A DNA stretch of 64,000 bases from Eubacteriales bacterium (GCA_045585895.1 JAZMZI010000011.1:8468-72467), one strand, 5' to 3'. Counted from the stretch's first letter, positions 18,740-60,265 are shown. Numbers and translations: made by a program. Notes: generated from the sequence alone by a model not told the origin.

Positions 18740-19810
18740 TTAAATAAAAGGTCTTCTGTCCAGCACAAGCTTAAGAGGCTTGTCGGACACTATCTGACCG
18801 CGGAAGGTCTGCTGAAGCTCCGCGAGACAGCAGGACGCGCCAAAGAGGCAGTGAAGGTCGTTAAATCTATCGTTGAAGAAGCCGTTTTGAACGAAATAAT
18901 CCTCCTTGGTGAGGTTTGCAACGTATTTCTTTGCAAAATCCCAAAGCTGAGCCATAGCCTCGTCGTGACGGTGGGGGGTCTGGCGGAGCGCTCTCGTCAT
19001 GCAGAATACCCAGTCGATTTCAAGAAAATCACAGTACGTACCGAAAGTATCGGGCAATCCCTTGTTATAGAGATCGATACAACTGTCGACTACCTTTTCG
19101 GGGTACATCAAAGGCTGCTTTGCGTATTCGTGGTTAAAGAGGTAATGGAAGCCGCCCGCCATATACTGGAAAAGCACCGCCTGCTCTCCTATGCACATAG
19201 CGTGACCGTTCAGAGGAGCCTTATCGGCAACTCCCTTCTTCCAGAATCCCGTTACGGGGTCTGCGTTCTCTCTGAACCAAGCAAAGTAGTTCTCGGAGAA
19301 CTCGGGGGTTATCTCGTCGGAGTTGACAAGCGCCGCATAAACGCCCGCGCCGAGGTGAGACTGACTCCAAGGCTTCTTCTGCCAATCGATGCCGTTTTCA
19401 AGAAGGTCGTAAAGCTCCTCACGGCTGTTGAGATATTTATGAAATTCCTTTATGGGGTAAAGGGGCTTGACGTCGAAAAGCTCTAATGCCGCGGAGCAGT
19501 GAGCCGTGGTGTGATATGCGTGATGGGTCTTTTCGTGGAAAAGTCCCGTTTCGGGGTCCTGCATAGCTTGCAGAGCCGCGATCCTTGCGCGTCGGGTCTC
19601 CTCGTCACAGTAAAAATCGTTGATGGTATAAAGCAGATTCATCGCGTCGGCGCAGCCGTACTCGCTGACTCCCATTTCACGGGTCCCCTTTTCGTTCTGC
19701 CAGAGCCAGCGGCGGTATTCGCCGGGTCTGCCCTCTATCTCGTGGCGCTTGACCGCCTCTCTTATTCCTTCGATTATCGGCTGTATGTTCAACTGTTCCA
19801 TAAATTTCAC
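18740..19810 (-). CDS. Hypothetical protein (356 aa), function unknown
   Basis: Long ORF with coding-like composition, Trp/His/Tyr-rich. No diagnostic motif recognised. Confidence 0.7.
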   Translation of the reverse strand: MKFMEQLNIQPIIEGIREAVKRHEIEGRPGEYRRWLWQNEKGTREMGVSEYGCADAMNLLYTINDFYCDEETRRARIAALQAMQDPETGLFHEKTHHAYHTTAHCSAALELFDVKPLYPIKEFHKYLNSREELYDLLENGIDWQKKPWSQSHLGAGVYAALVNSDEITPEFSENYFAWFRENADPVTGFWKKGVADKAPLNGHAMCIGEQAVLFQYMAGGFHYLFNHEYAKQPLMYPEKVVDSCIDLYNKGLPDTFGTYCDFLEIDWVFCMTRALRQTPHRHDEAMAQLWDFAKKYVANLTKEDYFVQNGFFNDRFNDLHCLFGASCCLAELQQTFRGQIVSDKPLKLVLDRRPFI

Positions 19811-20032: not shown

Positions 20033-21358
20033 ATGAATATCACTGATCCGAGGCTAAAAAAAGCATTACCGTATATCAGAAATATCTACACCTCGCTTTT
20101 TGCATCCCTTTCCGCGCTTCTCTTTTCCTCTATCGTTTTCAACGGATATTACAACACCTATCTGTCTTTCGAGGCAGATCTGACCTACCCCGCAAAATCC
20201 CTTCTGCTGACGCTTTTGCCATTTGTCACGATATTGATCGTCTACGTAGTTTACGACTATTTCGACAACGTAGACCTTTTCAACAAAAAGGACTATTTTG
20301 AGGAAAAATCCAAAAAGCCTTTGATCTCAAGAACGCCGTATATCGTAAGCTTTGCTATTTCGATGTTGTTTTCGACGCTTTTGCTGACATCAAGCTTTCA
20401 CGTCGCGCTCGGCTTCTATTTTCCCATGATCAATATTGCCGTGGCAAGATTTTTGGCGGTAGCGGTTATGGCGGCACTGAGGCTGTTCCAGATATGGTCG
20501 CTTCAGGATAAATGGCAGACCGAGATTGAAAATCCCCTTTTCGTAGAAAAGGCTATGTTCAAGCGAAACCGAGACATGTACCTTTTCAAGCCGCATCAGT
20601 TAATACTCCAACCAATCGGATATTTCTTCGCGTTTTTGGCATTGAGCTTGTTGACCGGCAGTATGATCATCCCCGGCATAATTTTGCCGGTATTGGTTAC
20701 CGCCGTCAACTTTGCACTCACCCCCGATATGTGGTGGACGGTATTCAGCGTACCTGTAATTATCGTCGCGATCGTAATAGCTATCCGCCTGATACACAAC
20801 GTAAAAAGACGCCGTATCCTTTTGAAAAAGCTGAAGCAGATGCAAAAAGAGGGACTTGCGAGAGTTGAAATAAAGGGCTCGAAATATCTCAGCTCCACAT
20901 TCATCACCCTGCCCTTGACCGTCAAGATAACCGACCGCGAGGGCGAAGTCTATAATTGCATCGTCGCCACCTGCGGCGAGATAAACGCCCCGATGTTCTT
21001 CAAAGAGGACGAATACTACGTTGAGCACGGTTTCCATTTGCGCGGCGGCGCGCTTATGTCAAGAGGCGGAACCTTTGCACAGGCAGTTGATATCAGCCAA
21101 ATGGGCGGCAAGGAAAACCCAACCAATCTCATTTTCGGATTCCGAACTTCTCACAAGCTGAAGTTCCCCGAGATCGAAGGACACAAGGTGGTAATTCTCA
21201 ATCCTACCCCCACCACGGCATATGCCGTTGACTTCCACTCGTATCGCTCTATCGACACGGGCGAGAATATGGGAAAATACACTCTCTACACGGCTACGGG
21301 TATTTTCAATCACGTTGAAAGACAGAGCCGTAAGACATTCCGCGACTACGATTATTGA
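20033..21358 (+). CDS. Polytopic membrane protein with a ~170-aa C-terminal soluble domain, function unknown
   Basis: 441 aa. RBS AAGGGGG. Several hydrophobic helices up to about residue 255, then KRRRILLKKLKQMQKEG and a non-hydrophobic domain. Confidence 0.75.
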   Translation: MNITDPRLKKALPYIRNIYTSLFASLSALLFSSIVFNGYYNTYLSFEADLTYPAKSLLLTLLPFVTILIVYVVYDYFDNVDLFNKKDYFEEKSKKPLISRTPYIVSFAISMLFSTLLLTSSFHVALGFYFPMINIAVARFLAVAVMAALRLFQIWSLQDKWQTEIENPLFVEKAMFKRNRDMYLFKPHQLILQPIGYFFAFLALSLLTGSMIIPGIILPVLVTAVNFALTPDMWWTVFSVPVIIVAIVIAIRLIHNVKRRRILLKKLKQMQKEGLARVEIKGSKYLSSTFITLPLTVKITDREGEVYNCIVATCGEINAPMFFKEDEYYVEHGFHLRGGALMSRGGTFAQAVDISQMGGKENPTNLIFGFRTSHKLKFPEIEGHKVVILNPTPTTAYAVDFHSYRSIDTGENMGKYTLYTATGIFNHVERQSRKTFRDYDY

Positions 21359-21485
21359 GTTTTATCTACTTGTTTTGCCCCGCTTTGGCGCAATGTCATT
21401 AAGATAAAATAATGACACAAAGAAAGATGCACTTAACAACGCAGAGAAAGCGAAGTGAAGTGCATTTTTCTTGTAAAAAGGCACG

Positions 21486-21512
21486 GTGAAAAGACAGACG
21501 AAAAAGTCTGTC
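21486..21512 (-). terminator. Terminator downstream of the transposase gene, inside the IS
   Basis: GACAGAC (21493-21499) / GTCTGTC (21506-21512), followed on the minus strand by TTTTCACC. Confidence 0.5.
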
Positions 21513-21539
21513 AAAAAAAGTATTGCAAAAAGGAAGAAT

Positions 21540-22856
21540 TTATGGTATTCTGTATAAGAAGCTTGTTGTGGTTTTAGGAGAACCTCTTCGAGGGTTGGCG
21601 GACCCTTTACGAACAGGTAATAAATGCTGTAACAACAACGCTTCAATATTTTGCGGAGAAATATTTTTTAAGAAGAAATTGCGACAAACATGTACGGCGG
21701 CAGCGAAGTTGATTCTGTAAGAATGCTTTCTGTTTTTGTGCTTAACGACTACGTGTGAGGTAATCAGTTCAGTGAAGTTGTACATAGTAAGTCTTGCAAA
21801 GACCTCTTGGAGAATATTCTCCGTTTTTTTAGAGTGAAAATAAGACAAGGCAAGCGAATACTTCAAGTCTCTGAAAGAGGTCTCGATTCCCCAACGCATA
21901 GCATAAAGCTCTTTTAATTCGGAAACAGAAAACTCATCCTCGGTTAAATTGGTAATAAGAACCTCGTAAGTATCTTCGGAAAGCTTAAAGCGAACGACGC
22001 GAAACGAAAGATAATACGGTATTATTGGCACAGTCTTTCTTGTGGTTGACGGTAGAAAATCGAAGTAAACGGAGTGGGATAAATATTTCAAATTGCTTTT
22101 TTTAGCTTCATTTGTTTGCTTTCGTGTTAAACCCAAAGATATAAAAACATCGAATTCTTGGTCATTGGGCAGGTCTAACCCGGACAGAATACCATATCCA
22201 TTACGATCTTTAAATCTAAACAAAAATTTTTGTCCCTTTTCAATGATGTGAGCGAGATTGTTGTAAGATTCATATCCTCTGTCGGCAATATAAATTGTTG
22301 GAACGGTCGATTTATCTCTATCCAACATCTCAACAAAAGCTTTGTGTTCATTTCCGCATCTGCTTTCTTGCACAACAGCATCGATATATATTTTTCTTTG
22401 TAAATCAAAAAGAGCGTTCAGATGGAAGAGATTGTACGGCTTCTGACCGTTCGCACCTTTGTAATAAGATCCCGGCTCATCTTTGTTTGTTGGCGTATGA
22501 AGATCTGATCCGTCAACAGCAAGTAAACGATAGCCTTTAAATAAAGCTTGTTCGTCAACAGAATTGGTAAATGTATGAAACAGAGCCTGAAAAGCACTGT
22601 AATCAAGTTTGTTTCTCTGCTGAACGAATGCGGACACGGTGGGCATAGAGTTGCTTAAATTAAAATACTCCATAAGCTCCCCACGAAGAGATTTTCCCGT
22701 CATTGATAAAACTGATTTTAAGATTTGATCGAAGGGGAGCTTTCTTTCTCTTGTGAAATCCTTGCCCGGTTTTTTCGCAAACAGCTCGGGGTGTGCCGAT
22801 ATTTCGTTGATACATTTTTTCAATATTCTTTTGATGATCTTAGGTGTGTAATTCAT
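21540..22856 (-). CDS. IS4-family DDE transposase
   Basis: MNYTPKIIKRILKK.... DDE-region motifs LLAVDGSDL and YIADRGYESY. IS4 signature Y(2)R(3)E(6)K in YAMRWGIETSFRDLK. The ATG at 22856 is preceded by AAGGAGA. Confidence 0.9.
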   Translation of the reverse strand: MNYTPKIIKRILKKCINEISAHPELFAKKPGKDFTRERKLPFDQILKSVLSMTGKSLRGELMEYFNLSNSMPTVSAFVQQRNKLDYSAFQALFHTFTNSVDEQALFKGYRLLAVDGSDLHTPTNKDEPGSYYKGANGQKPYNLFHLNALFDLQRKIYIDAVVQESRCGNEHKAFVEMLDRDKSTVPTIYIADRGYESYNNLAHIIEKGQKFLFRFKDRNGYGILSGLDLPNDQEFDVFISLGLTRKQTNEAKKSNLKYLSHSVYFDFLPSTTRKTVPIIPYYLSFRVVRFKLSEDTYEVLITNLTEDEFSVSELKELYAMRWGIETSFRDLKYSLALSYFHSKKTENILQEVFARLTMYNFTELITSHVVVKHKNRKHSYRINFAAAVHVCRNFFLKNISPQNIEALLLQHLLPVRKGSANPRRGSPKTTTSFLYRIP

Positions 22857-23078
22857 TGTGTTCTCCTTGTCAATAGTGGATTTGCCTCTATTAACAAGGG
22901 TCGATTTTATTAGCGAGCTAATAAAATCGACCGCACACTTTTGCCTTTTTGTCAACCCCTTTTTCGAAATTTCTTTAACTTTTTTGCAAAAAAAAGAGCC
23001 AAGTCCATTTCTGAACTTGGTTCTTTTCTTAACTTAATGACATTGGCCGAAGCGGGGGGCTTTTTCATATAGTTTAAA

Positions 23079-26000
23079 TTACTGTACGGGAGTGATAGTT
23101 ACGTCGTCAAGATGATAAAGAACGATTACCTTGTCGGTCGAACCGTCGAGAACCGCACAAACGTAGATGTCAAGAGGCTCCGTGGAATCCTTATATGCGG
23201 AAAGGTCGATTATGAGACCGTCACCCTGCCAACCGCCGTTCTTTTTCGTTGTGGCGTCATTGGTGAGGGGAACGTTACTCTTATTTGAGCCGCTGGTGAT
23301 CATTGCGTCGCTTGCTTCGTACCAGTGACCCTGACAATCGTTCCAGGTCTGTCCGCCGTCAGCGGTCCAGACGTATTTGCTGACTCCTCCTTCAACTACA
23401 GACCAACCCTTAAGTCTTACCGCGTAGTCGTAGGTGGTGCCTTTGTTGGTGAACTGATAGGTTGTAACAGACGTGTATGAAGGCATAGTCATAGCAGAGC
23501 CGTTAGCTTTGATGTTAGCTGCTTCGTTTACAGAGTCGACCTGAGAGCCGAAATCAATAAGTATTTCTTCGTATTCGGAGTTTTCATCCAAGATCGAAAC
23601 GAAATCGCAGTTAACTTCCTCAAGAACGTAGAGAAGGATAAGCTTGTCGGTAGCTGCCTTGGGGACTGCCGCGACCGTAATATCGATGGATCCACTCTGA
23701 GCGGAGAGGTCTATAGTGAGACCCTTGCCCGAGCTTCCAGCCTGGAAGCTTCCGTTGGTGCGGGAATTTACCTGATCGGCGAAGGTCACGCCCGATCTGC
23801 TTTGCGCTGCGTTATAAACTGCGTCGCCTGCGGAATCTGCAGTGCCGATAAGTTGTGTCCAGGTCTTGCCTCCGTCGATGGAGTAAACGTATTTTTCAAC
23901 GCCGCCGTCAGCGCAGCACCAACCCTGAAGCAACAGGGTTCCGACTCTTGACACGGTGCAACCGTTAATTACGGTGACGCCGTTCTCACTGGAGTTGTTT
24001 CCCTTATTGATGTAAACTCCGTTAATGTAGTCAATGGCGGAAGCGAAGGGAACGTCGGTTGCCACCGTGTATCCCGACGAGGGATCGAGGTAGGGATTTT
24101 GGGCAGTAGCGGTGTTGACGTCGATCTTTGTTTGCTTGCTGCCTTCGAAGAGGGTAAGAGTATCAACGCCGCCCTTTTCCATCTCACAGATGTCCTCGAT
24201 GCTTGCGTAAATACCTGCGTAAGCGATATTGATGTGGGTATCTTCGTTGGTAAATTCCTTGTTGAATATATCGAAACGGAGGAATTTAGCCGAATACGTG
24301 CCGTCGGAGCCGGAGGTGAACTTAAGCGTGCTGATCTTAGAGAGATCAATAACTTCAACGTGCCATTCGCCGTCTTCAACCAACGAGTGATTGAAGCATT
24401 CGGAACCTACTACGGTAGTGCCCGCGGTACTGGTAAAGAACTGGAAATTGCCAACGGATTCTTTGTTGTCCGAGGGAACTCTGTACTTGATCACGAGATA
24501 CTTGCCCGTCTCGGCAGAGCTGAGGCTGGTAAAGAGTGTAACGTAAGCCTCGGGAATAGGCTTTTCGGTCGTACCGACCTTACCGTAAATGTCAACGTAA
24601 TCAACACCGTTTTCGTTCTTTACCTCGGAGGAACCGAAGAAGGAGAGACCGTTAACCTTTTCTGCGATATCGTTGTGATCGAAGGCAGTGTCGACGGGCG
24701 CGGGCTTTTCGGAGCAATTGATCTCTTCCATGCAGAAGAGAAGAACGAGAGAGGTGGGTTCTTTTACGGGAACTGCCGCAAAGATCACGTCTACCTTTCC
24801 TTCAACACCGTTAAGGTCGATCGTAAGACCGTTATCGTTTTGGAAACGACCGTTTGTTCTGGAAGCCTCGCGGTCGGAGAATTGAAAGCCCGAAGGACCT
24901 GCTTTGCCCTCAGCCGTTGTGAGGATAGCGTCATTGTTGGCTGTGGTTACGTCTATGGGAGTACCTGCGCAGTCCTTCCAGGTCTTTCCTCCGTCGATAG
25001 AGTAAACGTATTTCTGGATACCGCCTTCAACGCAGCACCAACCCTGAACGAACAGAGTCTTGGTTTCGGGAAGCTTTATGCCGTTTATGGTGGTTACACC
25101 GCCGCCCTTGGAGCCTGCGGAGGATGCGCCGGGCTTAACTCCGTTTATATAGTCAAGGACAGAGCCGTAGGCGAGAGTGGACTGAGTATATCCCGATTCG
25201 GGATCAAGATAGGTCTTTATTATGACCTCTGCGGTTTCAACGTTGAGCTTGTTGGTCTGTCCTCCCTCAACGAAGTCAATGGTTTCAAACTTGCCCTCTT
25301 CAAGCTTGCATATCTCTCTGAGATCGGAATCAATACCGATATACGCGAAATCGATATGAACGTCGGGGTCGTTGAAACTCTTGTTGAAAATATCGAATCT
25401 TAATAATCTGGTCGTATAATTACCCGAGCCGTCTGCGATATAGCTGTTAAGACCTGCCTTTGAAAGATCAAAGACGACGACGTGCCATTCACCGTCCATT
25501 ACGGGAGTGTAGCTGAAGTTGCCTGCCTCGGTTGCGTTGTTAGTCGTGGTACTGGTAAAGAACTGGAATCCGCTGACAGGCTCACTGTTGGTATTGGGAA
25601 CTCTGTACTTGACTACGAGATACTGTCCCATATTATCCTTGGCTTCGCTGTCGTAAAGAGTGCAGTAGCTTTCTCCGATATCCTTATTGGAGCTGACGTA
25701 AACGCTGGCGTAGAAGGTTCCGGGAGCATCCTCAAATTCATGCATCTCTACCTTTGAGAAGAAGTGACCCATCGCGGATATGGTCGACTGAAGCTCTTCG
25801 GGGTCGGTATAGATGTTGAGAAGGTTTTCGTTTTCGGGTGCGGTGGGATCGGAAGGCCAGCCCGCAAAATCCTCGTAAGCCGAAACGCGGAAGGTCTTGG
25901 ACTCGGCGTTGGTCATATCCGTAACGAAGGAATAAGAGTAGGTTCCGTCCTCGTCATAATTGACCATATATCCGTCGTAGTAGTGGTACAAGCCGTGTAC

Positions 26001-29000
26001 GGGGTTATTCTTGGAGCTGATAACGTATTCAACCCAGTTACCGTTTTCGTCAAGTATCTCGACCTTGGGGTTGGTAAGCTTTTCGAAGCCGTAAACTCTT
26101 ATCGTAACGTTATTGATTCCGCCCGAGATCGTGAAGGTAGCGGTCTTGCCGTCTTTGCTCTTGATCTTGGGGAGGAAGGGACTGTCAAGCACTTCGTCGG
26201 TAGTGCTGGTGGCGGTAAGAGGATTGAGAAGAGTGTTTTCTCTTACGTCACGAACGTTTTTGTCCATATAGAGCGTTCCGTCGGGAAGAACGGTGCTGTA
26301 GGTATATTCGGTGTAACCGGTTGAATGAGGAGCGTTCAGTCTGTTGGCGGGATCGTCCTCGTATTCCTGAGAGCCCCAAGGAAGGAGGATGGCGTTAATA
26401 GTTATCTTATCGCCTGCTTTGAATTCGATCGTGCCTGCCTCATTAAGAGTAAGGGAAACGTAATCCTTGGGATTCTTGATGAGGAAGTTGTAATCCTTGT
26501 CTACACCGCCTATTTTGAAGCTTGAGTTGTAGATAAGGAAGGCAACGTTTGAGTATCCTTCGGCGCTGCCGTTGTCTCTGTACCAGTCGGGCATCATAAA
26601 GAAGGAGAAGTAGGGGCAATCGTCGCCGAGAATCTTCTCGGGAACTGCGGTCTCGTCCTGATTGGAGTCGATCACCTGATATTCGTTGTTTTCGTCGAGA
26701 TAACCTATCTTCTTATAAGTACCCTCGGGATTGTTGTCGGTTACTTCGTAGAATACAAAATTATCCTTGAAGTTATTGATGGTAAGGTCCTCAAGAAACT
26801 CGTACTCCATAGTGTAGTAGGTTCTGTTTTCGTCGGTCTGGGGCATCTCCATATGAGTGTAAGTGATCTTTATCTTACCGTCGTCGGAGAGATTGTGCCA
26901 TACTACCTCTGCGTAAGTGGGACCGTAAGAGGTAATGATATTTTCCTTACATTCGGACATATAAGTATTGCCGTCTGCGTCGGTGTACTTGAGCCAGGTG
27001 TGCGCGCCGCTGCTGTTATGCTGAGGCTGAGACTTCCAGTAGGGAGCCGACATACTTCTGAAGTCGGGGAGAGTGGAGCTGTTGGTCTTGCCAACGTTTA
27101 CCATTCCCAACCAAGGAAGAATACAGTTGGTCTCGGTAACACCCGTGGAGAGGTGGTAGTAAGGACAGTGGAAGGGAATCTGAGAGAGCTGCTTCAAGGG
27201 GAAGTTACCCCAGTTTTGATAAAGATTTATGAGCGTGTAGGTGTATCTTACGTTCTGCGACAATGAGAGGCAGAAGATAGCCTCGGAGAAGGTGGGGTCG
27301 TCTATATTGTAAAGGTTCCTTTCGCCCGTTGCCTCGGAGAAGTTTTTGATTACCTCTATCGGAACGGGAAGAAGCATCATATCCTTATCCATAAGGGTCG
27401 CACATTCAAGAAGTCCGCTTGAGCCCGAGGTCATAATATAGATGTCTCTGTCTATATCGGAGCGGATCTGGAAGTTGACCTTATAGTTTTTCTGAGGATT
27501 GTTGTAGGGAGCGTAGAAGCCTCCGATAGGAGTTGCTATCTTGAGGATATAAATACCTCTGATAGGATCGTATCGGTCGAAGGATGCACCGTCGGAGTTG
27601 AATTCCGAAATGCTGACTCTCTGAGAAATAAGGGGATGGCGCTCAAATCCCGTTTCCTTAAGGAATTCGGCAAAATCGTGATTTTCATCGGTGTAGACTC
27701 TTTGAGCGAGATAGAAATCGTTGCCGTTGTTTTTAACACCGTCAGCATGTATGTAGTTATCGTTTTCGTCCTTCTTTTCGGTATTTATCGAGGGAATGAT
27801 AACGCCCTCGGTACCATCTGCAAGTACGGGAGTTCTCGTTTGCTCGATAACGTACATGCCGTCCTTCTCGGTTACCTTGATGTTACCCGCGGCGGGATCG
27901 TCGGGAAGAATAAATCCGAAAATACCAGCCTCGGTTACGTCAAAGCCGACTGCTACGACGTCGTCCCAGGAGAAGCCTGCGTCGAGAGAGGTGTAGGTCT
28001 TATCGTCCTTGGTAACGATCATAAGCTTGGAGACCGTAGAAGTAGCTATCTCGGTGAGCATACCCACTTCTTTGATATCCTCAGTTCTCTGTGTTACCGC
28101 AAACTGGATAGCGTGGTGCATCTTGTTGGAGTAAACGTGGAAGTGACGGTTGATGCTGAGGGAAGCGGGGTAATCCATAGCCTTTCCGAGAGTGATGCTC
28201 TGGATGACCAGACCGTCGCCGACTTCGCCGTTGGGGTCGAAGCGGATTCCCTTAAGCGTAGTTGCGTCGGTATATCCGGGAAGCTTGTCAAGAGAGATGT
28301 AATACGCGTGGAATTCTCCGTCATTTACAAAGTAAATGTTCGTTGACTGCGTTGGGTCAAAGTCGTTTCCCGTATCGACCCAGAACTGCGCTCCCGTGGT
28401 CGAGCCTACGGTCTTGGCTACGATAACGATAGCATTGTTATCGGCAGTAGCGTAGCTGAAATTATTCTTGAATGAAAAATACGGGTCGGCACTCTTGCCT
28501 TCCTCGGGCTCAAGGATCTCGTAAAAGTAGGTGATAATGCCGTTTTCATCCTTTATTATGTCACCGTTTGCATCCCTTACGTAGTTAGGTTGTATTTGCT
28601 GCTTGTACGAGGAAGTAAACTGGGTTCTGAGATTAATGTGATTGGGATCTCCGAGGTTATACTCTTTTGCGGCAAAGTTCTGGAATTCGAACAAGCCCTG
28701 ATAGTAGTAATAACCGAATCGGTAGAGGTTAGCCTCTGCGCTCTTGGTGGAGCCCGAAGCGTAGTAGGTGTTTCCGCTGTTCATACGAACGAAAACGTCC
28801 ATAGTGTTCTGGATGTAAGGAACACCCTGAGTGTTCTTGATGGACTCTACGAGCTGGGGCGCTTTGTAGGAGCGCGCGTAGTTCATAGTCATCTCGAGGT
28901 TCTGAATGCTGTAGTGAGTACGGCTTGCGTCGGTAAAGTACGCCTGTACTCCGTTGGCAAGGGAATTGGACATCTGAACGAGAGTGTCGTTCTGAACCTC

Positions 29001-29345
29001 TAAAGAGCTTTGATCCTTAGGCTTGGTGGTTTCTTCGGGAGCGTTAGTGTCGCTACCTTCGGGAGCGTTAGTGTTACTGCCTTCGGGAGCGTTAGTGTCA
29101 CTGCCTTCGGGAGAAGTGTTGCCGTTCGGAGTTGAGGAGCTGTCTCCGTTTGCGGATGTGGTGCTGCTTTGATCGTTACCGCTCTCACTACCTTCGCTGT
29201 TCTGATTGGTAGTAGAGGTTACGGATCCGCTATCGGTACCGCTGCTTTGTTCGGGATCGGAGGGGTCGTTGCACGACGCCAAAACTCCGAGGATCATAAT
29301 AAAAGCTACGATCAAAGAGATAGAGGAAATTAGCTTTCTTTTCAT
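23079..29345 (-). CDS. Very large (2088 aa) predicted surface lipoprotein with repeated modules and Asp-box motifs; function unknown
   Basis: Signal peptide with lipobox (ILGVLASC). Ser/Thr/Asn/Gly/Glu-rich linker with PEGS(D/N)TNA repeats. Central ~1100 aa unassigned. C-terminal (X-Y)(X-Y)Y modules. SxDxGxTW Asp-boxes YSIDGGKTW (x2) and TADGGQTW. RBS GAAAGGAA. Confidence 0.9.
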   Translation of the reverse strand: MKRKLISSISLIVAFIMILGVLASCNDPSDPEQSSGTDSGSVTSTTNQNSEGSESGNDQSSTTSANGDSSSTPNGNTSPEGSDTNAPEGSNTNAPEGSDTNAPEETTKPKDQSSLEVQNDTLVQMSNSLANGVQAYFTDASRTHYSIQNLEMTMNYARSYKAPQLVESIKNTQGVPYIQNTMDVFVRMNSGNTYYASGSTKSAEANLYRFGYYYYQGLFEFQNFAAKEYNLGDPNHINLRTQFTSSYKQQIQPNYVRDANGDIIKDENGIITYFYEILEPEEGKSADPYFSFKNNFSYATADNNAIVIVAKTVGSTTGAQFWVDTGNDFDPTQSTNIYFVNDGEFHAYYISLDKLPGYTDATTLKGIRFDPNGEVGDGLVIQSITLGKAMDYPASLSINRHFHVYSNKMHHAIQFAVTQRTEDIKEVGMLTEIATSTVSKLMIVTKDDKTYTSLDAGFSWDDVVAVGFDVTEAGIFGFILPDDPAAGNIKVTEKDGMYVIEQTRTPVLADGTEGVIIPSINTEKKDENDNYIHADGVKNNGNDFYLAQRVYTDENHDFAEFLKETGFERHPLISQRVSISEFNSDGASFDRYDPIRGIYILKIATPIGGFYAPYNNPQKNYKVNFQIRSDIDRDIYIMTSGSSGLLECATLMDKDMMLLPVPIEVIKNFSEATGERNLYNIDDPTFSEAIFCLSLSQNVRYTYTLINLYQNWGNFPLKQLSQIPFHCPYYHLSTGVTETNCILPWLGMVNVGKTNSSTLPDFRSMSAPYWKSQPQHNSSGAHTWLKYTDADGNTYMSECKENIITSYGPTYAEVVWHNLSDDGKIKITYTHMEMPQTDENRTYYTMEYEFLEDLTINNFKDNFVFYEVTDNNPEGTYKKIGYLDENNEYQVIDSNQDETAVPEKILGDDCPYFSFFMMPDWYRDNGSAEGYSNVAFLIYNSSFKIGGVDKDYNFLIKNPKDYVSLTLNEAGTIEFKAGDKITINAILLPWGSQEYEDDPANRLNAPHSTGYTEYTYSTVLPDGTLYMDKNVRDVRENTLLNPLTATSTTDEVLDSPFLPKIKSKDGKTATFTISGGINNVTIRVYGFEKLTNPKVEILDENGNWVEYVISSKNNPVHGLYHYYDGYMVNYDEDGTYSYSFVTDMTNAESKTFRVSAYEDFAGWPSDPTAPENENLLNIYTDPEELQSTISAMGHFFSKVEMHEFEDAPGTFYASVYVSSNKDIGESYCTLYDSEAKDNMGQYLVVKYRVPNTNSEPVSGFQFFTSTTTNNATEAGNFSYTPVMDGEWHVVVFDLSKAGLNSYIADGSGNYTTRLLRFDIFNKSFNDPDVHIDFAYIGIDSDLREICKLEEGKFETIDFVEGGQTNKLNVETAEVIIKTYLDPESGYTQSTLAYGSVLDYINGVKPGASSAGSKGGGVTTINGIKLPETKTLFVQGWCCVEGGIQKYVYSIDGGKTWKDCAGTPIDVTTANNDAILTTAEGKAGPSGFQFSDREASRTNGRFQNDNGLTIDLNGVEGKVDVIFAAVPVKEPTSLVLLFCMEEINCSEKPAPVDTAFDHNDIAEKVNGLSFFGSSEVKNENGVDYVDIYGKVGTTEKPIPEAYVTLFTSLSSAETGKYLVIKYRVPSDNKESVGNFQFFTSTAGTTVVGSECFNHSLVEDGEWHVEVIDLSKISTLKFTSGSDGTYSAKFLRFDIFNKEFTNEDTHINIAYAGIYASIEDICEMEKGGVDTLTLFEGSKQTKIDVNTATAQNPYLDPSSGYTVATDVPFASAIDYINGVYINKGNNSSENGVTVINGCTVSRVGTLLLQGWCCADGGVEKYVYSIDGGKTWTQLIGTADSAGDAVYNAAQSRSGVTFADQVNSRTNGSFQAGSSGKGLTIDLSAQSGSIDITVAAVPKAATDKLILLYVLEEVNCDFVSILDENSEYEEILIDFGSQVDSVNEAANIKANGSAMTMPSYTSVTTYQFTNKGTTYDYAVRLKGWSVVEGGVSKYVWTADGGQTWNDCQGHWYEASDAMITSGSNKSNVPLTNDATTKKNGGWQGDGLIIDLSAYKDSTEPLDIYVCAVLDGSTDKVIVLYHLDDVTITPVQ
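23600..25700 (-). repeat. Intragenic tandem duplication: two ~1.12-kb (~374-aa) module copies, plus a third partial Y module at 23079-23600
   Basis: An identical 21-mer GGTACTGGTAAAGAACTGGAA occurs at 24426-24446 and 25548-25568, giving a 1122-nt period. Protein pairs: VSGFQFFTSTT/VGNFQFFTSTA, GEWHVVVFDLSK/GEWHVEVIDLSK, LLRFDIFNKSF/FLRFDIFNKEF, QGWCCVEGGIQKYVYSIDGGKTW/QGWCCADGGVEKYVYSIDGGKTW. Confidence 0.85.
29043..29122 (-). repeat. 24-bp in-frame tandem repeat (3.3 copies) encoding PEGS(D/N)TNA
   Basis: CTTCGGGAGCGTTAGTGT(C/T)(G/A)CT(A/G)C at 29043-29066, 29067-29090 and 29091-29114, with a partial fourth copy. Confidence 0.9.
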
Positions 29346-29408: not shown

Positions 29409-29437
29409 ATTATAACATATAATTTATAATATTGCAA
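29409..29437 (-). promoter_or_regulatory. Sigma-70-type promoter of the giant lipoprotein gene (TTGCAA-N17-TATAAT)
   Basis: On the minus strand, TTGCAA at 29432-29437, 17-nt spacer, TATAAT at 29409-29414, about 65 nt upstream of the ATG at 29345. Confidence 0.5.
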
Positions 29438-33274: not shown

Positions 33275-33344
33275 TAAGAAGTTTAAAAGCAAAAAACATT
33301 ATAAATTCAAAGCTTGCCTATTTCGGCAGAATGGAGATTTTTTA

Positions 33345-35012
33345 ATGGGTATTACAGGAAATGTCTATCGCAGTATGGTTCTTTCCGGAGCCGCAATACT
33401 CAGCGATAAGAAGGAAGAGATCAATAATCTGAACGTTTTCCCCGTTCCCGACGGAGATACGGGAATCAATATGAGCCTTACTATGAGCACCGTAGGAAAG
33501 GCAGAGGAGGGACTTCCCGTAGGAGTATGTGCCGACAAGGTCGCCGCTCTTATGCTCAGAGGCGCAAGAGGTAACTCTGGCGCTATCCTCTCGCTGTTTT
33601 TCAGAGGTATCGGCAAGGCACTCAAGGGCGTGGATGAGGCAGGCTCCAAGGAGCTTGTAGACGCGTTCAAGAGAGGAACGACGGAGGCGTACCGCGCGGT
33701 AATGAAGCCCACCGAAGGAACTATCCTTACCGTTATGAGAGTTGCGGGAGAGGAGGCAGAGAAGGCTTTCCTTGCAAATAAGCGCATCAGCGTCAAAAAG
33801 CTTTTCGAGGTCCTTCTTCAAGGAGCGGAGACCGCTTTGGCTCAGACCCCCGAAATGCTCCCCGTTCTTAAGCAGACGGGAGTAGTGGACGCGGGCGGCG
33901 CAGGCTTTGTTTGCGTGCTTCAGGGTATGCAGATGGCGCTTGAGGGCAATCCGTACGTTATGGTCAACGCCGCCGCAAGCGAGAGCGACGCGCCTGCAGA
34001 GCCTGAGGGAGCAAACTTCTCGGATTTCAATACCGAGGATATTAAATTTGGCTATTGTACCGAGTGTATAGTTGATAAAAATGAAAAGTACGCAGGCGAA
34101 GATACGTCGGGCGAGCTTTACGAGTTTATAAAGAGCATCGGAGACAGTGCGGTATTTGTGGATGACGAGAGCATCATCAAGCTCCACATACATACCAACG
34201 ATCCCGGAGCGGTTCTCACGAAGGCCATACAGTTTGGAAGTCTTGCTACCGTTAAGATCGAGAATATGAGAAATCAGCATACCGCTCTTACGGGTGAGGC
34301 TGCTGCCATTACTCCCGCAAAGGAGGAAAAGAAGGAAAAAGCGGTGGCTATCGAGAAGAAGTACGGATTCGTCAGCGTATGTATGGGCGACGGTATTGCG
34401 GAGATGTTCAGAGATATCGGAGTCGACAATATCATCACGGGCGGTCAGACTATGAACCCCAGCACGCAGGATATTATCGACGCGGTTCTGAAAACTCCCT
34501 CGGAATACGTTTTCGTTCTGCCCAATAATAAAAATATATGTATGGTAGCCCGTCAGGCTGCTGAGATCATAAGCGAGAGAAAGGTAGTGGTGATTCCTAC
34601 CGAGACCGTTCCTCAGGGCGTATCCGCAATGATCGCGTTCAACCCCGACGCAGAGGTAGACGCGGTAGAGAAGGAAATGAACTTCGCGTGGAAGATGGTC
34701 ACTTCCATGTCGGTCACCTATGCCGTCAGAGATACCGAGCTTGACCGTTTCAAGATCCGCAAGGGACAGTATCTCGGATTGGTCGAGAACAAGATCGCTT
34801 GCGTTACCGACGACAGTATGGCTTGTATGAAGCAGCTCTGCCGCGGAATGACGGGAGCGAGCTTCGTAACCGTATTCTACGGTGAGGGCGTTACCGAGGA
34901 GACCGCAAACAAGGTCGCAAAGATGATCTCCGATAAGGTCGGCGGCGGTTGCGAGGTCGCGGTGCTCAGCGGCGGTCAGCCCCTCTACGACTATATCATA
35001 TCCGTTGAATAA
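33345..35012 (+). CDS. fakA: DAK2-domain protein, YloV/FakA-type fatty acid kinase subunit
   Basis: 555 aa. N-terminal Dak2-like segment NNLNVFPVPDGDTGINM. Size and architecture match YloV/FakA. Paired with a DegV gene. Confidence 0.85.
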   Translation: MGITGNVYRSMVLSGAAILSDKKEEINNLNVFPVPDGDTGINMSLTMSTVGKAEEGLPVGVCADKVAALMLRGARGNSGAILSLFFRGIGKALKGVDEAGSKELVDAFKRGTTEAYRAVMKPTEGTILTVMRVAGEEAEKAFLANKRISVKKLFEVLLQGAETALAQTPEMLPVLKQTGVVDAGGAGFVCVLQGMQMALEGNPYVMVNAAASESDAPAEPEGANFSDFNTEDIKFGYCTECIVDKNEKYAGEDTSGELYEFIKSIGDSAVFVDDESIIKLHIHTNDPGAVLTKAIQFGSLATVKIENMRNQHTALTGEAAAITPAKEEKKEKAVAIEKKYGFVSVCMGDGIAEMFRDIGVDNIITGGQTMNPSTQDIIDAVLKTPSEYVFVLPNNKNICMVARQAAEIISERKVVVIPTETVPQGVSAMIAFNPDAEVDAVEKEMNFAWKMVTSMSVTYAVRDTELDRFKIRKGQYLGLVENKIACVTDDSMACMKQLCRGMTGASFVTVFYGEGVTEETANKVAKMISDKVGGGCEVAVLSGGQPLYDYIISVE

Positions 35013-35036
35013 TAGTAGTGAAAGAATAAATAAACG

Positions 35037-35070
35037 AAAAATGCTCCGTTTCAAGCGGAGCATTTTTGTA
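35037..35070 (+). terminator. Intrinsic terminator of fakA
   Basis: ATGCTCCG (35041-35048) / CGGAGCAT (35056-35063), flanked by an A-run and a T-run. Confidence 0.75.
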
Positions 35071-35117
35071 TGAATTTTCTTTGTTATGAGAATATGAGAA
35101 TAAATATAACTTGACAC

Positions 35118-35146
35118 TTGACAAGCATAGATAAAAATGGTATAAT
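35118..35146 (+). promoter_or_regulatory. Perfect consensus sigma-70 promoter (TTGACA-N17-TATAAT) with no downstream protein gene
   Basis: TTGACA at 35118-35123 (a second overlapping TTGACA lies at 35111-35116), 17-nt spacer, TATAAT at 35141-35146. Confidence 0.55.
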
Positions 35147-35152
35147 TCCCCT

Positions 35153-35226
35153 GCGACACAATTTAATATTTTGAATTTATAGCTAAGTAGGCATTTTTAC
35201 TCTGTAAAAATGCCTACTCCTTTTTT
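35153..35226 (+). ncRNA. Candidate small RNA (~70 nt) from the consensus promoter to the first terminator
   Basis: Predicted transcription start near 35153. Terminator hairpin GTAGGCATTTTTA (35187-35199) / TAAAAATGCCTAC (35205-35217) followed by TCCTTTTTT. No ORF or RBS. Confidence 0.3.
35187..35226 (+). terminator. Intrinsic terminator (13-bp perfect stem plus T-run)
   Basis: See the coordinates in the candidate small RNA entry above. It sits at the apex of a larger nested palindrome (35153-35267). Confidence 0.7.
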
Positions 35227-37420: not shown

Positions 37421-37460
37421 AAAACTCCCCGAAACGTTCGGTTTCGGGGAGTGATTGTTT
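37421..37460. terminator. Bidirectional intrinsic terminator
   Basis: CTCCCCGAAAC (37425-37435) / GTTTCGGGGAG (37441-37451), with an A-run before and a T-run after. Confidence 0.75.
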
Positions 37461-38839
37461 TAAAGGAGGTTTCTGAAATCCTCAATTCTGTGGAAGGTGG
37501 AATAATTTGCGTCGTGGTAGTTCCTTGCATTGTTCATCGACGTGCGGCAGAGATATATGATATCGTCTCCTTCGATTTCAAAATCAACGTATTGAAATCC
37601 AACCTTGGAGGGGGCGTCGTGCCTTCGGTCGATGAGATCGCAGACCGTCTCCCAAGTCTCAAGGTCGCTTGAAGCTACGAGGGAAAGAAGATTCCTTGCC
37701 GTTTTTGGCTCGTCGATGCGTCGGCTGATGATCGAAAGATATTTCCCGCTTACCGTGTCTTTTTTTATCATGAATTTAGAGAGATTTCCGTCAAAATTTA
37801 TTGCGTGAGAGTATTTGAGAGGCGCATCGGGATCGTCGTCGACGAGAAACGCCAATATCTTCTTTTCGGCTTGGGTCTGGTAGCGCATTATGTTGTAAAG
37901 TCTGCCGTCGGGAGCGACCGTAAGCGTGCCTTCGATATTTCCGTGTCTGCCGTCGGGGGCTGCGCCGACCCAATTGGGGTCGTGAACCACGGGAGGGGTA
38001 AAGTGCCAGTTTTCGGGATCGAGAAGGTCTGCGTTTTCGTCGCAGGACATTACCATAGCGCCGTGAAAATAACCCTTGTCGAGCCAGCTGCCCCATTCGA
38101 GGGTTTCGTAAACCCGTCCGTTGTGGCAAACTACGTTTTGAGGGTTTTTATGGATGCCCGAATACCCCTCTTTTCCGTTTGAACCGCGCAGAAGAGTGAC
38201 GGGAGATGAAAAGCTCTTGCCACCGTCCTCGCTCTTACCGATAAGCAGGTCGCCGTATTCGGTAGATACGGAAAGCATATAAAGCTCGCCCTTGTGGATG
38301 AAGAGCTTGCCCCAGAAACAGGGCATAAGCTCGCATTGATAGTGCCAGCTTTTTCCGTCGTCGTCAGAACGGAAAACAAGGGTAAGATTCTGCGGTGACT
38401 CTCCTTTGAAAACGTCCATTGATGCCAGCAGATGACCGTCGGGATGACGGACGAGGGAAGGGGAGCAGAGCGCGCGACCGGAAAAGGCGTAGCAAGAGTC
38501 GTCGGGGTGGAGATAGTTGACGACTGTTCCTACGGTAGCGGCGCAACGCGCCAGACGGACACGGCTTTTTTTATCGCCTGATGTGACGTAAAATTCATAA
38601 TCGTTTTCGCTTTCAAGTCTCTCGATATCATATTCGTATTCTTGTGTATTGCCGCAAAAAACGAATTCTTCGCTGCCTCTTTTGCGGCAGAAAATTTCAT
38701 ATTTACAACCCTCGCCAAGGGGCAGCCATTCGAGATGAATAGCGTTTTCGGAGGGAGCTATACGGCAGATATAAATCTCTCCGACCTCCCATAAAAACGG
38801 GCGGTATGGTGCGTAGCTCCATTTAGTGCAACCTATCAT
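37460..38839 (-). CDS. BNR/Asp-box repeat protein, sialidase (GH33)-like, no signal peptide
   Basis: Asp-boxes SDDDGKSW and SEDGGKSF. N-terminal beta-sandwich-like ~90 aa. Start at 38839 (MIGCTKWSY...) with RBS AAAGGA. Confidence 0.75.
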   Translation of the reverse strand: MIGCTKWSYAPYRPFLWEVGEIYICRIAPSENAIHLEWLPLGEGCKYEIFCRKRGSEEFVFCGNTQEYEYDIERLESENDYEFYVTSGDKKSRVRLARCAATVGTVVNYLHPDDSCYAFSGRALCSPSLVRHPDGHLLASMDVFKGESPQNLTLVFRSDDDGKSWHYQCELMPCFWGKLFIHKGELYMLSVSTEYGDLLIGKSEDGGKSFSSPVTLLRGSNGKEGYSGIHKNPQNVVCHNGRVYETLEWGSWLDKGYFHGAMVMSCDENADLLDPENWHFTPPVVHDPNWVGAAPDGRHGNIEGTLTVAPDGRLYNIMRYQTQAEKKILAFLVDDDPDAPLKYSHAINFDGNLSKFMIKKDTVSGKYLSIISRRIDEPKTARNLLSLVASSDLETWETVCDLIDRRHDAPSKVGFQYVDFEIEGDDIIYLCRTSMNNARNYHDANYSTFHRIEDFRNLL

Positions 38840-38915
38840 TTTTTGATCCTTTCGATTTGGAAGATGATTTTGTTGTAAAAATCGCTGGTGAATCGACAAA
38901 ATATAAACAATATGT

Positions 38916-39845
38916 TTAAAAAACAACAATATGTTCCAAATAGTCGCTTGCTTTTTTCATCTGCTCTACACAACTCTTGGCATAATCGGTCATAATGCCG
39001 CCGTCGGGCTTTCTCGTGATAAGCTCGGTCTCAATACCTCGGAGAGTCATATTGTATTTAGCCGTGAGGGGGTAGGGAAGACCGCCCTCGATAAAGCCGA
39101 ACGTGCCGATGAACGACTGGATAAGCTCTGCCTTTTCGGGCTCTTTGCGGAAATTGTTGCCGAGCCATGCGTAAAGCTTAGGATGGAAATTGCACATTAT
39201 TCCGCAATATCCCCGAGCGCCCAAACGCAGACTTTCAAGCAGAGTTTGACAGTTTGCGTTAAGAAGCTGAAATTCACTGCCTTCAAGCTGACGGCAACGC
39301 TCTGCGATCAATGCGGCATCACAACAGGTGTCCTTCATATAGTGGAATCTGCCCGTGGACAGCGCCCAATCAAGAATTTTTGGTGTCACTAATCTTTTGT
39401 AAGGGTAAGGGCATTCGTAGAATCCCAGCTTCGCTTCGGGAGGGAGCTTTGCCAGCAGCTTTTCAGCGTTGGCGATAAAAACGTCGTCTCCCTCGTTGTT
39501 GATGTCGAGGCGGTTGGTTATGAGAATGAGCGCGTCGGTACCGCTCTCGTATACGGCGCAAAGCTCCTTTGCCTGTTCTTCAAGCGTGTTGGATACGTGT
39601 CCGGAAGACACCACCGTAAATGGGCGGTCGCCATTCGCTTCAAGTTCCTTTGCTCTCGCGTAAACTCTGCGGTTAAGCTCTATGCGCTCCTCAAGAGTGA
39701 GGAAAAAAATCTCACTGGATTGGCAAACGGCAAAAATTCCGTCGATGCCACTATTATAATAAAAATCAACGTATTTTTCTGCTGTTTCAAAATCAACAGA
39801 GCCGTCTTTTTTGTAAGGTGTTATCATCGTGGTGAAAATATTCAT
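38916..39845 (-). CDS. Dihydrodipicolinate synthase / N-acetylneuraminate lyase family aldolase (class I)
   Basis: MNIFTTMITPYKKDGSVDFETAEKYVDFYYNSGIDGIF.... Candidate Schiff-base Lys in HYMKDT. Atypical CQSSE in place of GTTGE. Upstream of the BNR gene and divergent from an AraC gene. Confidence 0.8.
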   Translation of the reverse strand: MNIFTTMITPYKKDGSVDFETAEKYVDFYYNSGIDGIFAVCQSSEIFFLTLEERIELNRRVYARAKELEANGDRPFTVVSSGHVSNTLEEQAKELCAVYESGTDALILITNRLDINNEGDDVFIANAEKLLAKLPPEAKLGFYECPYPYKRLVTPKILDWALSTGRFHYMKDTCCDAALIAERCRQLEGSEFQLLNANCQTLLESLRLGARGYCGIMCNFHPKLYAWLGNNFRKEPEKAELIQSFIGTFGFIEGGLPYPLTAKYNMTLRGIETELITRKPDGGIMTDYAKSCVEQMKKASDYLEHIVVF

Positions 39846-39940
39846 AAGGTCACCGTCCTTTCCATGTTGATTATACAACAAATCAAGAATAATTTCAATA
39901 CGTAATTTAGGACTTAATTTTATATTTTTCGGACATCCGA

Positions 39941-39969
39941 TTGACATTCTTCCGGAAATCTTATATAAT
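39941..39969 (+). promoter_or_regulatory. Perfect consensus sigma-70 promoter (TTGACA-N17-TATAAT) for the AraC gene
   Basis: TTGACA at 39941-39946, 17-nt spacer, TATAAT at 39964-39969. Confidence 0.6.
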
Positions 39970-59452: not shown

Positions 59453-60261
59453 ATACCGAAAGTGTAAATAAAAAAACCGTGGGAATTTCCGATGCTTCTA
59501 TTGAGGAAGCACTGTATATGATAAACGACGAGGACGCAATCGTTGCCTTAGCCGTAAGAGAGCAAATACCCAAAATTGCCGCCGCAGTTGAGATTGGTGT
59601 TAAAACTCTGAAGGGTGGAGGACGGATCTTTTATTGCGGTTGTGGAACGAGCGGCCGTATTGCCGTTGCGGATGCGGCTGAATGCCCGCCAACCTATGGA
59701 GTAAGTCCAGAGCTTGTAAATGCTGTTATAGCCGGAGGCGCTAAGGCTATGGTCAATGCGGCTGAGGGCTGTGAGGATAGCGCCGAAAAGGGAATAGAAG
59801 CTTTTGAGAGAGTCGGAGTCTGCGATAAAGATATGGTTATAGGAATTTCTGCCGCGGGACGAGCTCCCTTCGTTCTGGCGTTTATGCAGAGAGCGAATGA
59901 GATCGGATGCGTCGTGTGCGCGATAGTAAATAACGTCGATACTCCAATGAAGCAAATTGCCGACGTTGCTATTGAAACGCTTACCAGCGCGGAGGTAATA
60001 AAGGGCTCTACCAGAATGAAAGCGGGTACGAGCCAGAAAATGATACTTAATATGTTCTCCACGGCATTGTTTATTCAAATGGGGTGCACCTACAGAAACT
60101 ATATGGTGAATATGATCCCAAACAATACCAAATTGCGATCAAGAGCCGTTTCTATGATCACGGATATTTTGGAAACCGAGCCTGAGACGGCAAAAAAACT
60201 GTTGGAAGAATATAATTGGGACATAAAAGCGGTAATTGATTCTTGTGATAAGCGAGGCTGA
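59449..60261 (+). CDS. murQ: SIS-domain N-acetylmuramic acid 6-phosphate etherase (MurQ-like)
   Basis: GCGTSGRIAVADAAECPPTYGV, GISAAGRAPFV, KAGTSQKMILNMFST. Start overlaps the nanE stop (ATGA). Confidence 0.8.
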   Translation: MNTESVNKKTVGISDASIEEALYMINDEDAIVALAVREQIPKIAAAVEIGVKTLKGGGRIFYCGCGTSGRIAVADAAECPPTYGVSPELVNAVIAGGAKAMVNAAEGCEDSAEKGIEAFERVGVCDKDMVIGISAAGRAPFVLAFMQRANEIGCVVCAIVNNVDTPMKQIADVAIETLTSAEVIKGSTRMKAGTSQKMILNMFSTALFIQMGCTYRNYMVNMIPNNTKLRSRAVSMITDILETEPETAKKLLEEYNWDIKAVIDSCDKRG

Positions 60262-60265
60262 TATA

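Follow-up and report, generated by a model that had tools for sequence, protein, structure and literature searches.

Multimodular surface proteins for Gram-positive polysaccharide use are already well known, and the protein described here resembles such surface glycanases. A Paenibacillus xanthanase (PDB 6fhj) and the cellulosomal enzymes (glycoside hydrolase [GH] family GH5 and others) share with it jelly rolls resembling carbohydrate-binding modules (CBMs) and immunoglobulin (Ig)-like modules, placed C-terminal to a large core; these enzymes have a recognisable catalytic domain, whereas none was recognisable in our protein. We take the catalytic domain of 6fhj to be GH9; the PDB title says only multi-modular xanthanase. 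The catalytic unit of OpgG (family GH186) consists of a large beta-sandwich and the Ig-like domain after it; it has neither a barrel nor a toroid. The general acid is D388 in OpgD and D361 in OpgG, the base is D300, and R359 lies in the cleft (PMC10514313). Here we describe a gene at positions 23079-29345, (-) strand, of a 64,000-nt stretch of DNA from Eubacteriales bacterium (GCA_045585895.1 JAZMZI010000011.1:8468-72467), hereafter the window. Its open reading frame (ORF) is uninterrupted, starts with ATG and encodes a predicted lipoprotein of 2088 amino acids (aa). We give this protein about an even chance of being a surface-anchored, endo-acting glycanase (hydrolase or lyase) of an undescribed family; catalysis, site and substrate are what we infer from the comparisons that follow. 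In the order of the protein, the gene divides into these parts:

29271-29345, (-) strand: lipoprotein signal peptide, aa 1-25, with lipobox LASC and Cys25 (from the translation).
28995-29270, (-) strand: low-complexity linker, aa 26-117, rich in S/T/N/G/D/P/E.
25836-28994, (-) strand: family core, aa 118-1170, predicted to be all-beta and multidomain (AlphaFold2, Foldseek); alignable in all homologues.
28233-28442, (-) strand: N-terminal X-like jelly-roll segment, aa ~302-371, FWVDTG...GEFHAYYISLDKL...IRFDPNG.
26823-27701, (-) strand: most conserved segment, aa 549-841, the proposed active or binding centre (conservation at least 94%, 50 sequences).
25221-25835, (-) strand: X1 module, aa 1171-1375, predicted beta-jelly-roll, CBM/MAM-like (Foldseek, hidden Markov model [HMM] domain).
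24711-25220, (-) strand: Y1 module, aa 1376-1545, predicted Ig-like sandwich in which a CC pair precedes the Asp-box SIDGGKTW (aa 1449).
24099-24710, (-) strand: X2 module, aa 1546-1749 (HMM; likeness of X1Y1 and X2Y2).
23604-24098, (-) strand: Y2 module, aa 1750-1914 (HMM), with the Asp-box SIDGGKTW at aa 1822.
23082-23603, (-) strand: Y3 module, aa 1915-2088 (HMM), with the variant Asp-box TADGGQTW at aa 1994 and without the CC pair.

The original prediction, made from the sequence of this stretch, had found no motif to assign in the central region of ~1100 aa, and library searches agreed with it. Pfam searches of the full protein gave nothing above noise, the only match being to BNR below the cut-off (16.7 vs. 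27 bits), and a scan of the protein against NCBIfam gave nothing significant. PDB sequences yielded 0 matches, both with phmmer and with hmmsearch using the family profile. Ten distant members had nothing above noise in Pfam, 10 core sequences showed no recurrent weak Pfam matches at E ≤ 10, and a literature search for a described family with these properties found none. Judged by these searches, the core is outside every family represented in Pfam, NCBIfam or PDB. None of the Pfam, NCBIfam, PDB and Foldseek searches placed the protein confidently in a characterised GH, polysaccharide lyase (PL) or CBM family, and to that extent the prediction of an undescribed family stood.

Structure prediction by module, which had been proposed as a check, gave confident all-beta models whose likenesses to known structures were at the level of the fold only. 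Both AlphaFold2 models were built from homologue alignments. The core model (aa 110-1180; predicted local distance difference test [pLDDT] 91, predicted template modelling score [pTM] 0.86) was almost wholly beta. Along the chain, an N-terminal helix and sandwich are followed by the X-like insert, then by a beta domain and a large centre that resembles a super-sandwich, and an Ig-like sandwich closes the C-terminal end. The model of X1Y1 (aa 1170-1550) had a pLDDT of 94. No TIM barrel, alpha/alpha toroid, beta-helix or propeller was present in the models. Foldseek matches of the core in PDB included reelin repeats, GH186 OpgG/OpgD of E. coli and Xanthomonas, and the multimodular xanthanase, together with super-sandwich-containing enzymes of GH36, GH38 and GH2, CBM86 and the Eph ligand-binding domain. 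The models thus indicate that the core is composed of a galactose-mutarotase-like super-sandwich plus jelly-roll and Ig-like domains. The xanthanase 6fhj was among the top Foldseek matches for both the core and the X-Y models.

The best enzyme matches of the core were the GH186 proteins OpgG and OpgD (PDB 1txk, 8ip2, 8iox and 8x18; Foldseek E ~1e-5, probability 1.0, ~490-660 columns), with a low structural agreement (TM-score [TM] on target 0.33-0.36, root-mean-square deviation [rmsd] above 20 Å). In the model, the core appears to end much as GH186 does, with a big sandwich and then an Ig-like domain. In sequence the two differ: Pfam MdoG (PF04349) was not matched at E ≤ 1, nor at E ≤ 10 on 10 members, and the family profile aligned to E. 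coli OpgG (NC_000913.3) with an hhalign probability of 0.07%. Homology to GH186 was rejected on these results, and the likeness is one of fold only. In addition, the core is twice as long as GH186 and has extra N-terminal domains, and GH186 proteins are periplasmic proteins of Gram-negative bacteria, whereas the present protein is a predicted lipoprotein of Clostridia.

Conservation was evaluated in 50 sequences that were 27-64% identical to the query. Sixty-one positions were at least 94% conserved, nearly all of them within aa 549-841 (outliers include D979 and D1124). Approximately 30 near-invariant polar or aromatic residues lay in this segment; its first part contains R549, E568, R633, E647, K667, N668, D683, Y709, W712, K718, Q719, Y729, Y730 and H731, and its second part S733, E738, C741, D761, R763, W770, Q775, H831, E833, Q836, D838, E839 and R841. 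Columns conserved at 90% or more made up 57 of 293 in the central region (model residues 446-740, aa 555-849) vs. 0 of 261 over the first 285 residues of the model. Judging from the alignment, so dense an invariant set among paralogues of 27-64% identity is a pattern typical of catalytic machinery and not of diversifying binding sites.

HMMs of the X and Y modules gave the string X-Y-X-Y-Y for this protein, in line with the (X-Y)(X-Y)Y architecture that had been ascribed to a 1122-nt tandem duplication. DNA repeat families D3, D7 and D10 consisted of direct repeats with 1122-nt spacing, and the shared 21-mer GGTACTGGTAAAGAACTGGAA was recovered in identical form at 24426 and 25548 (read from repeat family D3). 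X1Y1 (aa ~1171-1545) and X2Y2 (aa ~1546-1914) were 42% identical over 371 aa (E 3e-95), and Y3 was 41% identical to Y2 over 109 aa (E 1e-22). Nucleotide identity between X1Y1 and X2Y2 was 60-85%, in short patches only. Because the two units share just 42% of their amino acids, the duplication is, on sequence divergence, an ancient one; an assembly artefact of repeats (collapse or mis-assembly), which the original prediction had raised as a caveat, and a recent duplication were both ruled out. Throughout the family the number of X-Y units varies, and the additional unit of this protein is one such state. The weak third X-like copy noted near the N-terminus also found support: the X profile aligned with the profile of aa ~302-371 over 70 columns (hhalign probability 94%, E 1e-7).

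In the Foldseek search of X-Y, X matched the jelly rolls of CBM11, CBM30, CBM4, MAM and CIA30, Y matched the Ig-like dimerisation domain of sulfite oxidase/dehydrogenase, and Prevotella SGBP-B (6d2y) was also listed. The models place X among CBM-like folds and Y among Ig-like folds, and these are fold-level assignments only. X (~200 aa, beta-jelly-roll) had a TM on target of 0.36-0.42 with CBM11, CBM30, CBM4 and MAM; when the core and X models are taken together, CBM4, CBM11, CBM30 and CBM86 showed fold likeness only (TM on target 0.36-0.68) and no Pfam match. The X-Y pairing parallels the MAM-Ig tandem of RPTPmu. X differs from CBM, MAM and CIA30 domains in that it has no sequence-level membership in them, and in that the query core contains an X-like copy of its own towards the N-terminus.

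Asp-box matches were SIDGGKTW at aa 1449 and aa 1822, TADGGQTW at aa 1994 and the variant SLDAGFSW at aa 453, and the CC pair preceded only the first two (aa 1449 and 1822). A single Asp-box in an Ig-like C-terminal domain, a non-propeller setting, has been described in sulfite oxidase and chitobiase (PMC2716378). Y shares with the Ig-like domains of sulfite oxidase/dehydrogenase and chitobiase (GH20) a beta-sandwich of ~170 aa with one SxDxGxTW hairpin, and sulfite oxidase/dehydrogenase chains recurred among the Y matches at modest Foldseek probabilities (0.2-0.6). It differs from sulfite oxidase in having no Moco domain, in occurring in one to seven tandem copies, and in its CC pair, which is not described there. 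Because a singlet Asp-box in an Ig-like domain matches the published situation, the Y Asp-boxes are best modelled as structural hairpins, one per Ig-like domain, with no sialidase-like meaning. The SxDxGxTW motif is common to the BNR propellers of GH33 sialidases, but those carry several Asp-boxes on six blades, whereas the query has one per Ig-like module and a BNR score below the cut-off. With a single hairpin per Ig-like domain and no propeller in the models, the sialidase-like reading was ruled out, and the predicted structure is not that of a GH33/BNR propeller.

Modules of the Y type were also seen outside long proteins. At one related locus (L013:12659-15440), two small ORFs (484 and 433 aa) lay directly downstream of a 1610-aa family member and consisted mostly of two Y modules each (Y HMM matches, E 1e-38 to 1e-5); these may be Y-Y proteins that stand by themselves, or else what is left of a decayed paralogue.

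The N-terminal sequence, MKRKLISSISLIVAFIMILGVLASC, begins with a positively charged n-region and continues through a hydrophobic stretch to the lipobox L-A-S-C, and its layout (MKRK-LISSISLIVAFIMILGV-LASC) fits the lipobox pattern [LVI][ASTVI][GAS]C. Conservation of Cys25 was at least 90% among 66 homologues, and most distant relatives also had a lipobox. The sequence is consistent with a bacterial lipoprotein (an Lgt/LspA substrate), and exposure at the cell surface is predicted. The linker, rich in S/T/N/G (aa 26-117), contained three 24-nt tandem units (29033-29113, repeat family D2) that encode NAPEGS[DN]T. Both the LASC signal peptide and the low-complexity linker had been read correctly at the outset.

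The family to which the core belongs is undescribed, yet it is not rare. When 1.84 billion representatives of clusters at 50% identity were searched exhaustively with the profile, at least 2333 clusters matched at E ≤ 1e-3, of which 340 reached E ≤ 1e-30. Among the best 150 of the 2333 hits were core-only forms of ~1000 aa and forms of ~830-860 aa; because the best match of the latter starts at profile position ~268, they appear to be without the N-terminal X-like part. A word-index search found 224 relatives, and the 120 listed were all at least 1260 aa long and nearly all without Pfam domains; those listed that bear names are hypothetical proteins of Clostridia metagenome-assembled genomes (MAGs). 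The usual architecture was signal peptide, linker, core, X, Y and at times a second Y. The 10 distant members, from Oscillospiraceae, Ruminococcaceae, Eubacteriales and one Spirochaetota, had no Pfam domain, and every named one was "hypothetical"; nearly all began with a lipoprotein-type signal peptide, and one began with a dockerin. When the word-index search was seeded with the Spirochaetota member, it found one further relative only.

In the GTDB set (one genome per species), 67 family loci were recovered, all in MAGs; these came from ruminant, yak, sheep, goat and human (Hadza) guts, plus one Chthonomonadales. The family is essentially confined to uncultured organisms, which probably explains its going unnoticed. 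Two MAGs (fecal_MAG_346 and SGB_4764) each contained at least eight paralogous loci, often in tandem, so lineage-specific expansion of the family is strong. No further family paralogues were found in the window. The copy number of X-Y units in relatives, another check proposed at the outset, varied widely. The most frequent C-terminal strings were XY (59), XYY (42), XX (16), X (15), XXX (9) and XYXY (7), among others, and the range extended from X to XYYYYYYY; XYXYY occurred in the query alone. A dockerin was present in P0102 (Pfam scan) and P0117 (precomputed annotation), and P0107 had both cohesin and dockerin (Pfam scan). P0209 has a dockerin-like N-terminus, read by eye, and P0063 has a BspA-type leucine-rich repeat (LRR_5) domain. 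The Pfam scan of the query showed no dockerin, the type I domain that would mark a cellulosomal component. Tandem arrays of two to three paralogues were seen at L017 (1843, 1991 and 1613 aa), L037, L043, L016, L030 and other loci.

Because the neighbours of the lipoprotein gene in the window are an insertion sequence (IS) element, type IA topoisomerase, DegV, OGG and other housekeeping genes, functional context was taken from relatives, whose ORFs were called by a simple ATG-longest-ORF heuristic. In a human-gut subgroup of seven loci (L067, L068, L069, L071, L072, L074 and L075), a short member of ~855 aa was followed by a lipoprotein of 572-597 aa without a Pfam match (for example, L071:10487-12205). 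Five of the seven showed the full order: a Flg_new repeat protein of the surface, the family member, the lipoprotein, two ABC permeases of the sugar type, a GFO/IDH/MocA oxidoreductase and a GH78-like alpha-L-rhamnosidase. The 572-597-aa lipoprotein, which has no annotation, is probably a solute-binding protein. Among the genes scanned in this operon there was no annotated extracellular depolymerase; the Flg_new surface protein alone remained without assignment. In a rumen subgroup, also of seven loci, one to three tandem members were directly followed by a GH2 LacZ-like beta-galactosidase. The order in Spirochaetota was sulfatase, AraC, GH78, member and sulfatase. Elsewhere, a GH36-like gene abutted a member with zero intergenic gap, a GH78-like gene lay near one long-form member, and other loci had dockerin-bearing SASA esterases, or an AraC regulator with CE15-like esterase and SASA genes. 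Two further features of the human-gut operon were recorded: wherever the ABC permeases are visible, the 572-597-aa lipoprotein always lies between them and the short member, and the first permease is unusually long (~660-730 aa).

If the protein is a glycanase, the lipid would anchor it to the membrane, and the flexible S/T-rich linker would hold the ~1050-aa all-beta core off that membrane. The core would cleave polysaccharide through a cleft in the central super-sandwich-like region (aa ~549-841), paralleling GH186. The CBM-like X modules would target the enzyme, and the Ig-like, Asp-box-stiffened Y modules would space it on the polysaccharide, adding avidity and reach. Relatives would take up the released oligosaccharides through the ABC importer encoded next to the member, and exo-glycosidases of the GH78, GH2 and GH36-like types would trim them in the cytoplasm. 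Since the partners in relatives are an alpha-L-rhamnosidase and a beta-galactosidase, the most plausible substrate class would be a rhamnose- and galactose-containing plant glycan, such as rhamnogalacturonan-I or arabinogalactan.

Catalysis is favoured because the invariant charged/His/Tyr constellation persists in divergent paralogues, because the human-gut operon scan showed no annotated extracellular depolymerase, and because GH186 shows that this class of fold is able to catalyse. Several observations weigh against it. The core has no sequence similarity to any characterised enzyme (OpgG, hhalign 0.07%; PDB profile, 0 hits), and its structural matches, with low TM and high rmsd, involve a fold that in glycoside hydrolases does not usually carry out the catalysis. 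The catalytic site is placed by conservation alone and is putative. Many members, including the query, stand alone; the query gene sits among housekeeping genes, and the window provides no functional context for it. Finally, the presence of at least eight paralogous loci per genome and the shuffling of C-terminal modules would fit variable adhesins or binding proteins as well. The main competitor, in our estimate an unlikely one but well ahead of the others, is a non-catalytic surface protein that binds polysaccharide and passes it to separate enzymes and the ABC importer, as do its functional analogues, the surface glycan-binding proteins (SGBPs) of Bacteroidota and the starch-adherence proteins of Ruminococcus bromii. 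The protein as modelled consists of beta-sandwich, jelly-roll and Ig-like modules throughout, and no fold of a classical catalytic kind is among them; in most glycoside hydrolases a super-sandwich serves as an accessory domain, as the GH36, GH38 and GH2 matches illustrate. A lipid anchor on a long linker, a variable number of CBM-like modules, the appearance of Prevotella SGBP-B (6d2y) among the X-Y matches, and the position of the human-gut operon member directly upstream of the probable solute-binding protein and ABC permeases all point the same way. However, binding sites diverge with their ligand, and for paralogues only 27% identical to share so many invariant charged, His and Tyr residues, so densely placed, would be unusual in binding proteins; moreover, depolymerisation in the human-gut operon would be left to the Flg_new protein or to genes elsewhere.

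The tandem arrays and the eight or more loci in each of two MAGs could also be read as signs of a variable adhesin or cell-envelope protein that serves attachment to host, particle or other cells, or antigenic diversification, and not nutrient acquisition. The X/Y strings, variable from X to XYYYYYYY, the LRR_5 (BspA-type) domain on one homologue, the Flg_new repeat proteins among the neighbours, and the reelin, Eph and MAM-Ig ectodomains among the top Foldseek matches are in keeping with this. We nevertheless regard it as quite improbable: an invariant core is ill-suited to antigenic variation, the repeated linkage to GH78, GH2, esterase, sugar ABC and AraC genes in distant subgroups points to carbohydrate catabolism, and dockerin-bearing members point to cellulosome-type assemblies. 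Least probable of all, with only a slight chance in our view, is a hydrolase of something other than glycans, for example a peptidase or amidase using H731, C741, H831, E833 and D838 and possibly metal-dependent. In its favour are the invariance of Cys741, notable in an extracellular protein, and that of His and acidic residues, and no family assignment contradicts it. Against this, the top 50 PDB matches contained no peptidase folds, meprin being matched in its accessory MAM/TRAF region only; the genes beside relatives encode glycoside hydrolases and sugar transporters, and the appended modules are CBM-like.

Compared with these alternatives, a surface-anchored glycanase of an undescribed family is the reading we prefer. 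The original prediction, a cell-surface glycan-binding or glycan-degrading protein of an undescribed family, keeps its lipobox and lack of library matches as support, and has indirect support for a glycan-related role in the CBM-like and super-sandwich folds, the dockerins of some homologues and the operon partners of relatives; its Asp-boxes, which carry no sialidase-like meaning, no longer contribute. We are more tentative, with odds somewhat short of even, about the further proposal that the core founds a new GH or PL family with an all-beta super-sandwich catalytic centre, specialised on rhamnose- and galactose-containing plant glycans; such a family would occur almost solely in uncultured gut Clostridia, with many paralogues in each genome.

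The surroundings of the gene agreed with the earlier statements that it is the largest gene in the window and abuts an IS element, and there is a candidate for the promoter of its own that had been ascribed to it. The 2088-aa ORF was the longest in the window, and the runner-up was 898 aa. Two flanking features were located:

29409-29437, (-) strand: candidate sigma-70-like promoter, TTGCAA, 17-nt spacer, TATAAT, with an upstream TG (extended -10).
21378-23058, (-) strand: IS element with DDE_Tnp_1 transposase and terminal inverted repeats; not part of the lipoprotein.

The promoter candidate matched 10 of 12 consensus positions in a consensus scan, which is a pattern match only. Downstream of it, and 5' of the ATG, is GAAAGGAA, a GA-rich ribosome-binding site. 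The transposase (471 aa, 21540-22955, (-) strand; Pfam DDE_Tnp_1, E 2.7e-28) and the imperfect 35-nt terminal inverted repeats (21378-21412 and 23024-23058) make the IS look complete. It lies at the 3' end of the lipoprotein gene and ends 20 nt past the stop codon; for this reason the terminator-like hairpin at 23020-22999 is IS sequence. The native 3' region of the lipoprotein gene may have been displaced by the IS.

Other genes of the window were recorded in passing. At 37460-39947, (-) strand, a BNR_2 sialidase-like protein (489 aa) lies beside a DHDPS/N-acetylneuraminate-lyase-like protein (343 aa), possibly a sialic-acid harvesting pair; the BNR_2 protein is the only true BNR-propeller candidate in the window and is unrelated to the Asp-boxes of the lipoprotein. 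A GH42 beta-galactosidase (720 aa, 60236-62398, (+) strand), 31 kb from the lipoprotein gene, points to galactoside catabolism in the organism. Mid-sized ORFs without a Pfam match were found nearby at 18740-19810, (-) strand (356 aa), 20033-21358, (+) strand (441 aa), and 33342-35159, (-) strand (605 aa).

Uncultured organisms encode much of what enables rumen and gut Clostridia to degrade fibre, and their large "hypothetical" surface proteins escape the annotation of carbohydrate-active enzymes. The list of conserved residues and the module boundaries make either reading, catalysis or binding, directly testable with recombinant protein. Should it bind glycans without cleaving them, the protein would be to Gram-positive bacteria what the surface glycan-binding proteins are to Bacteroidota. 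A catalytic core would give CAZy a new family whose all-beta scaffold is unusual for catalysis, and the interpretation of gene clusters in these organisms would change. Specialisation of such a core on rhamnose- and galactose-containing plant glycans would provide a missing extracellular depolymerase of Gram-positive polysaccharide-utilisation loci, by a super-sandwich catalysis so far exemplified by GH186.

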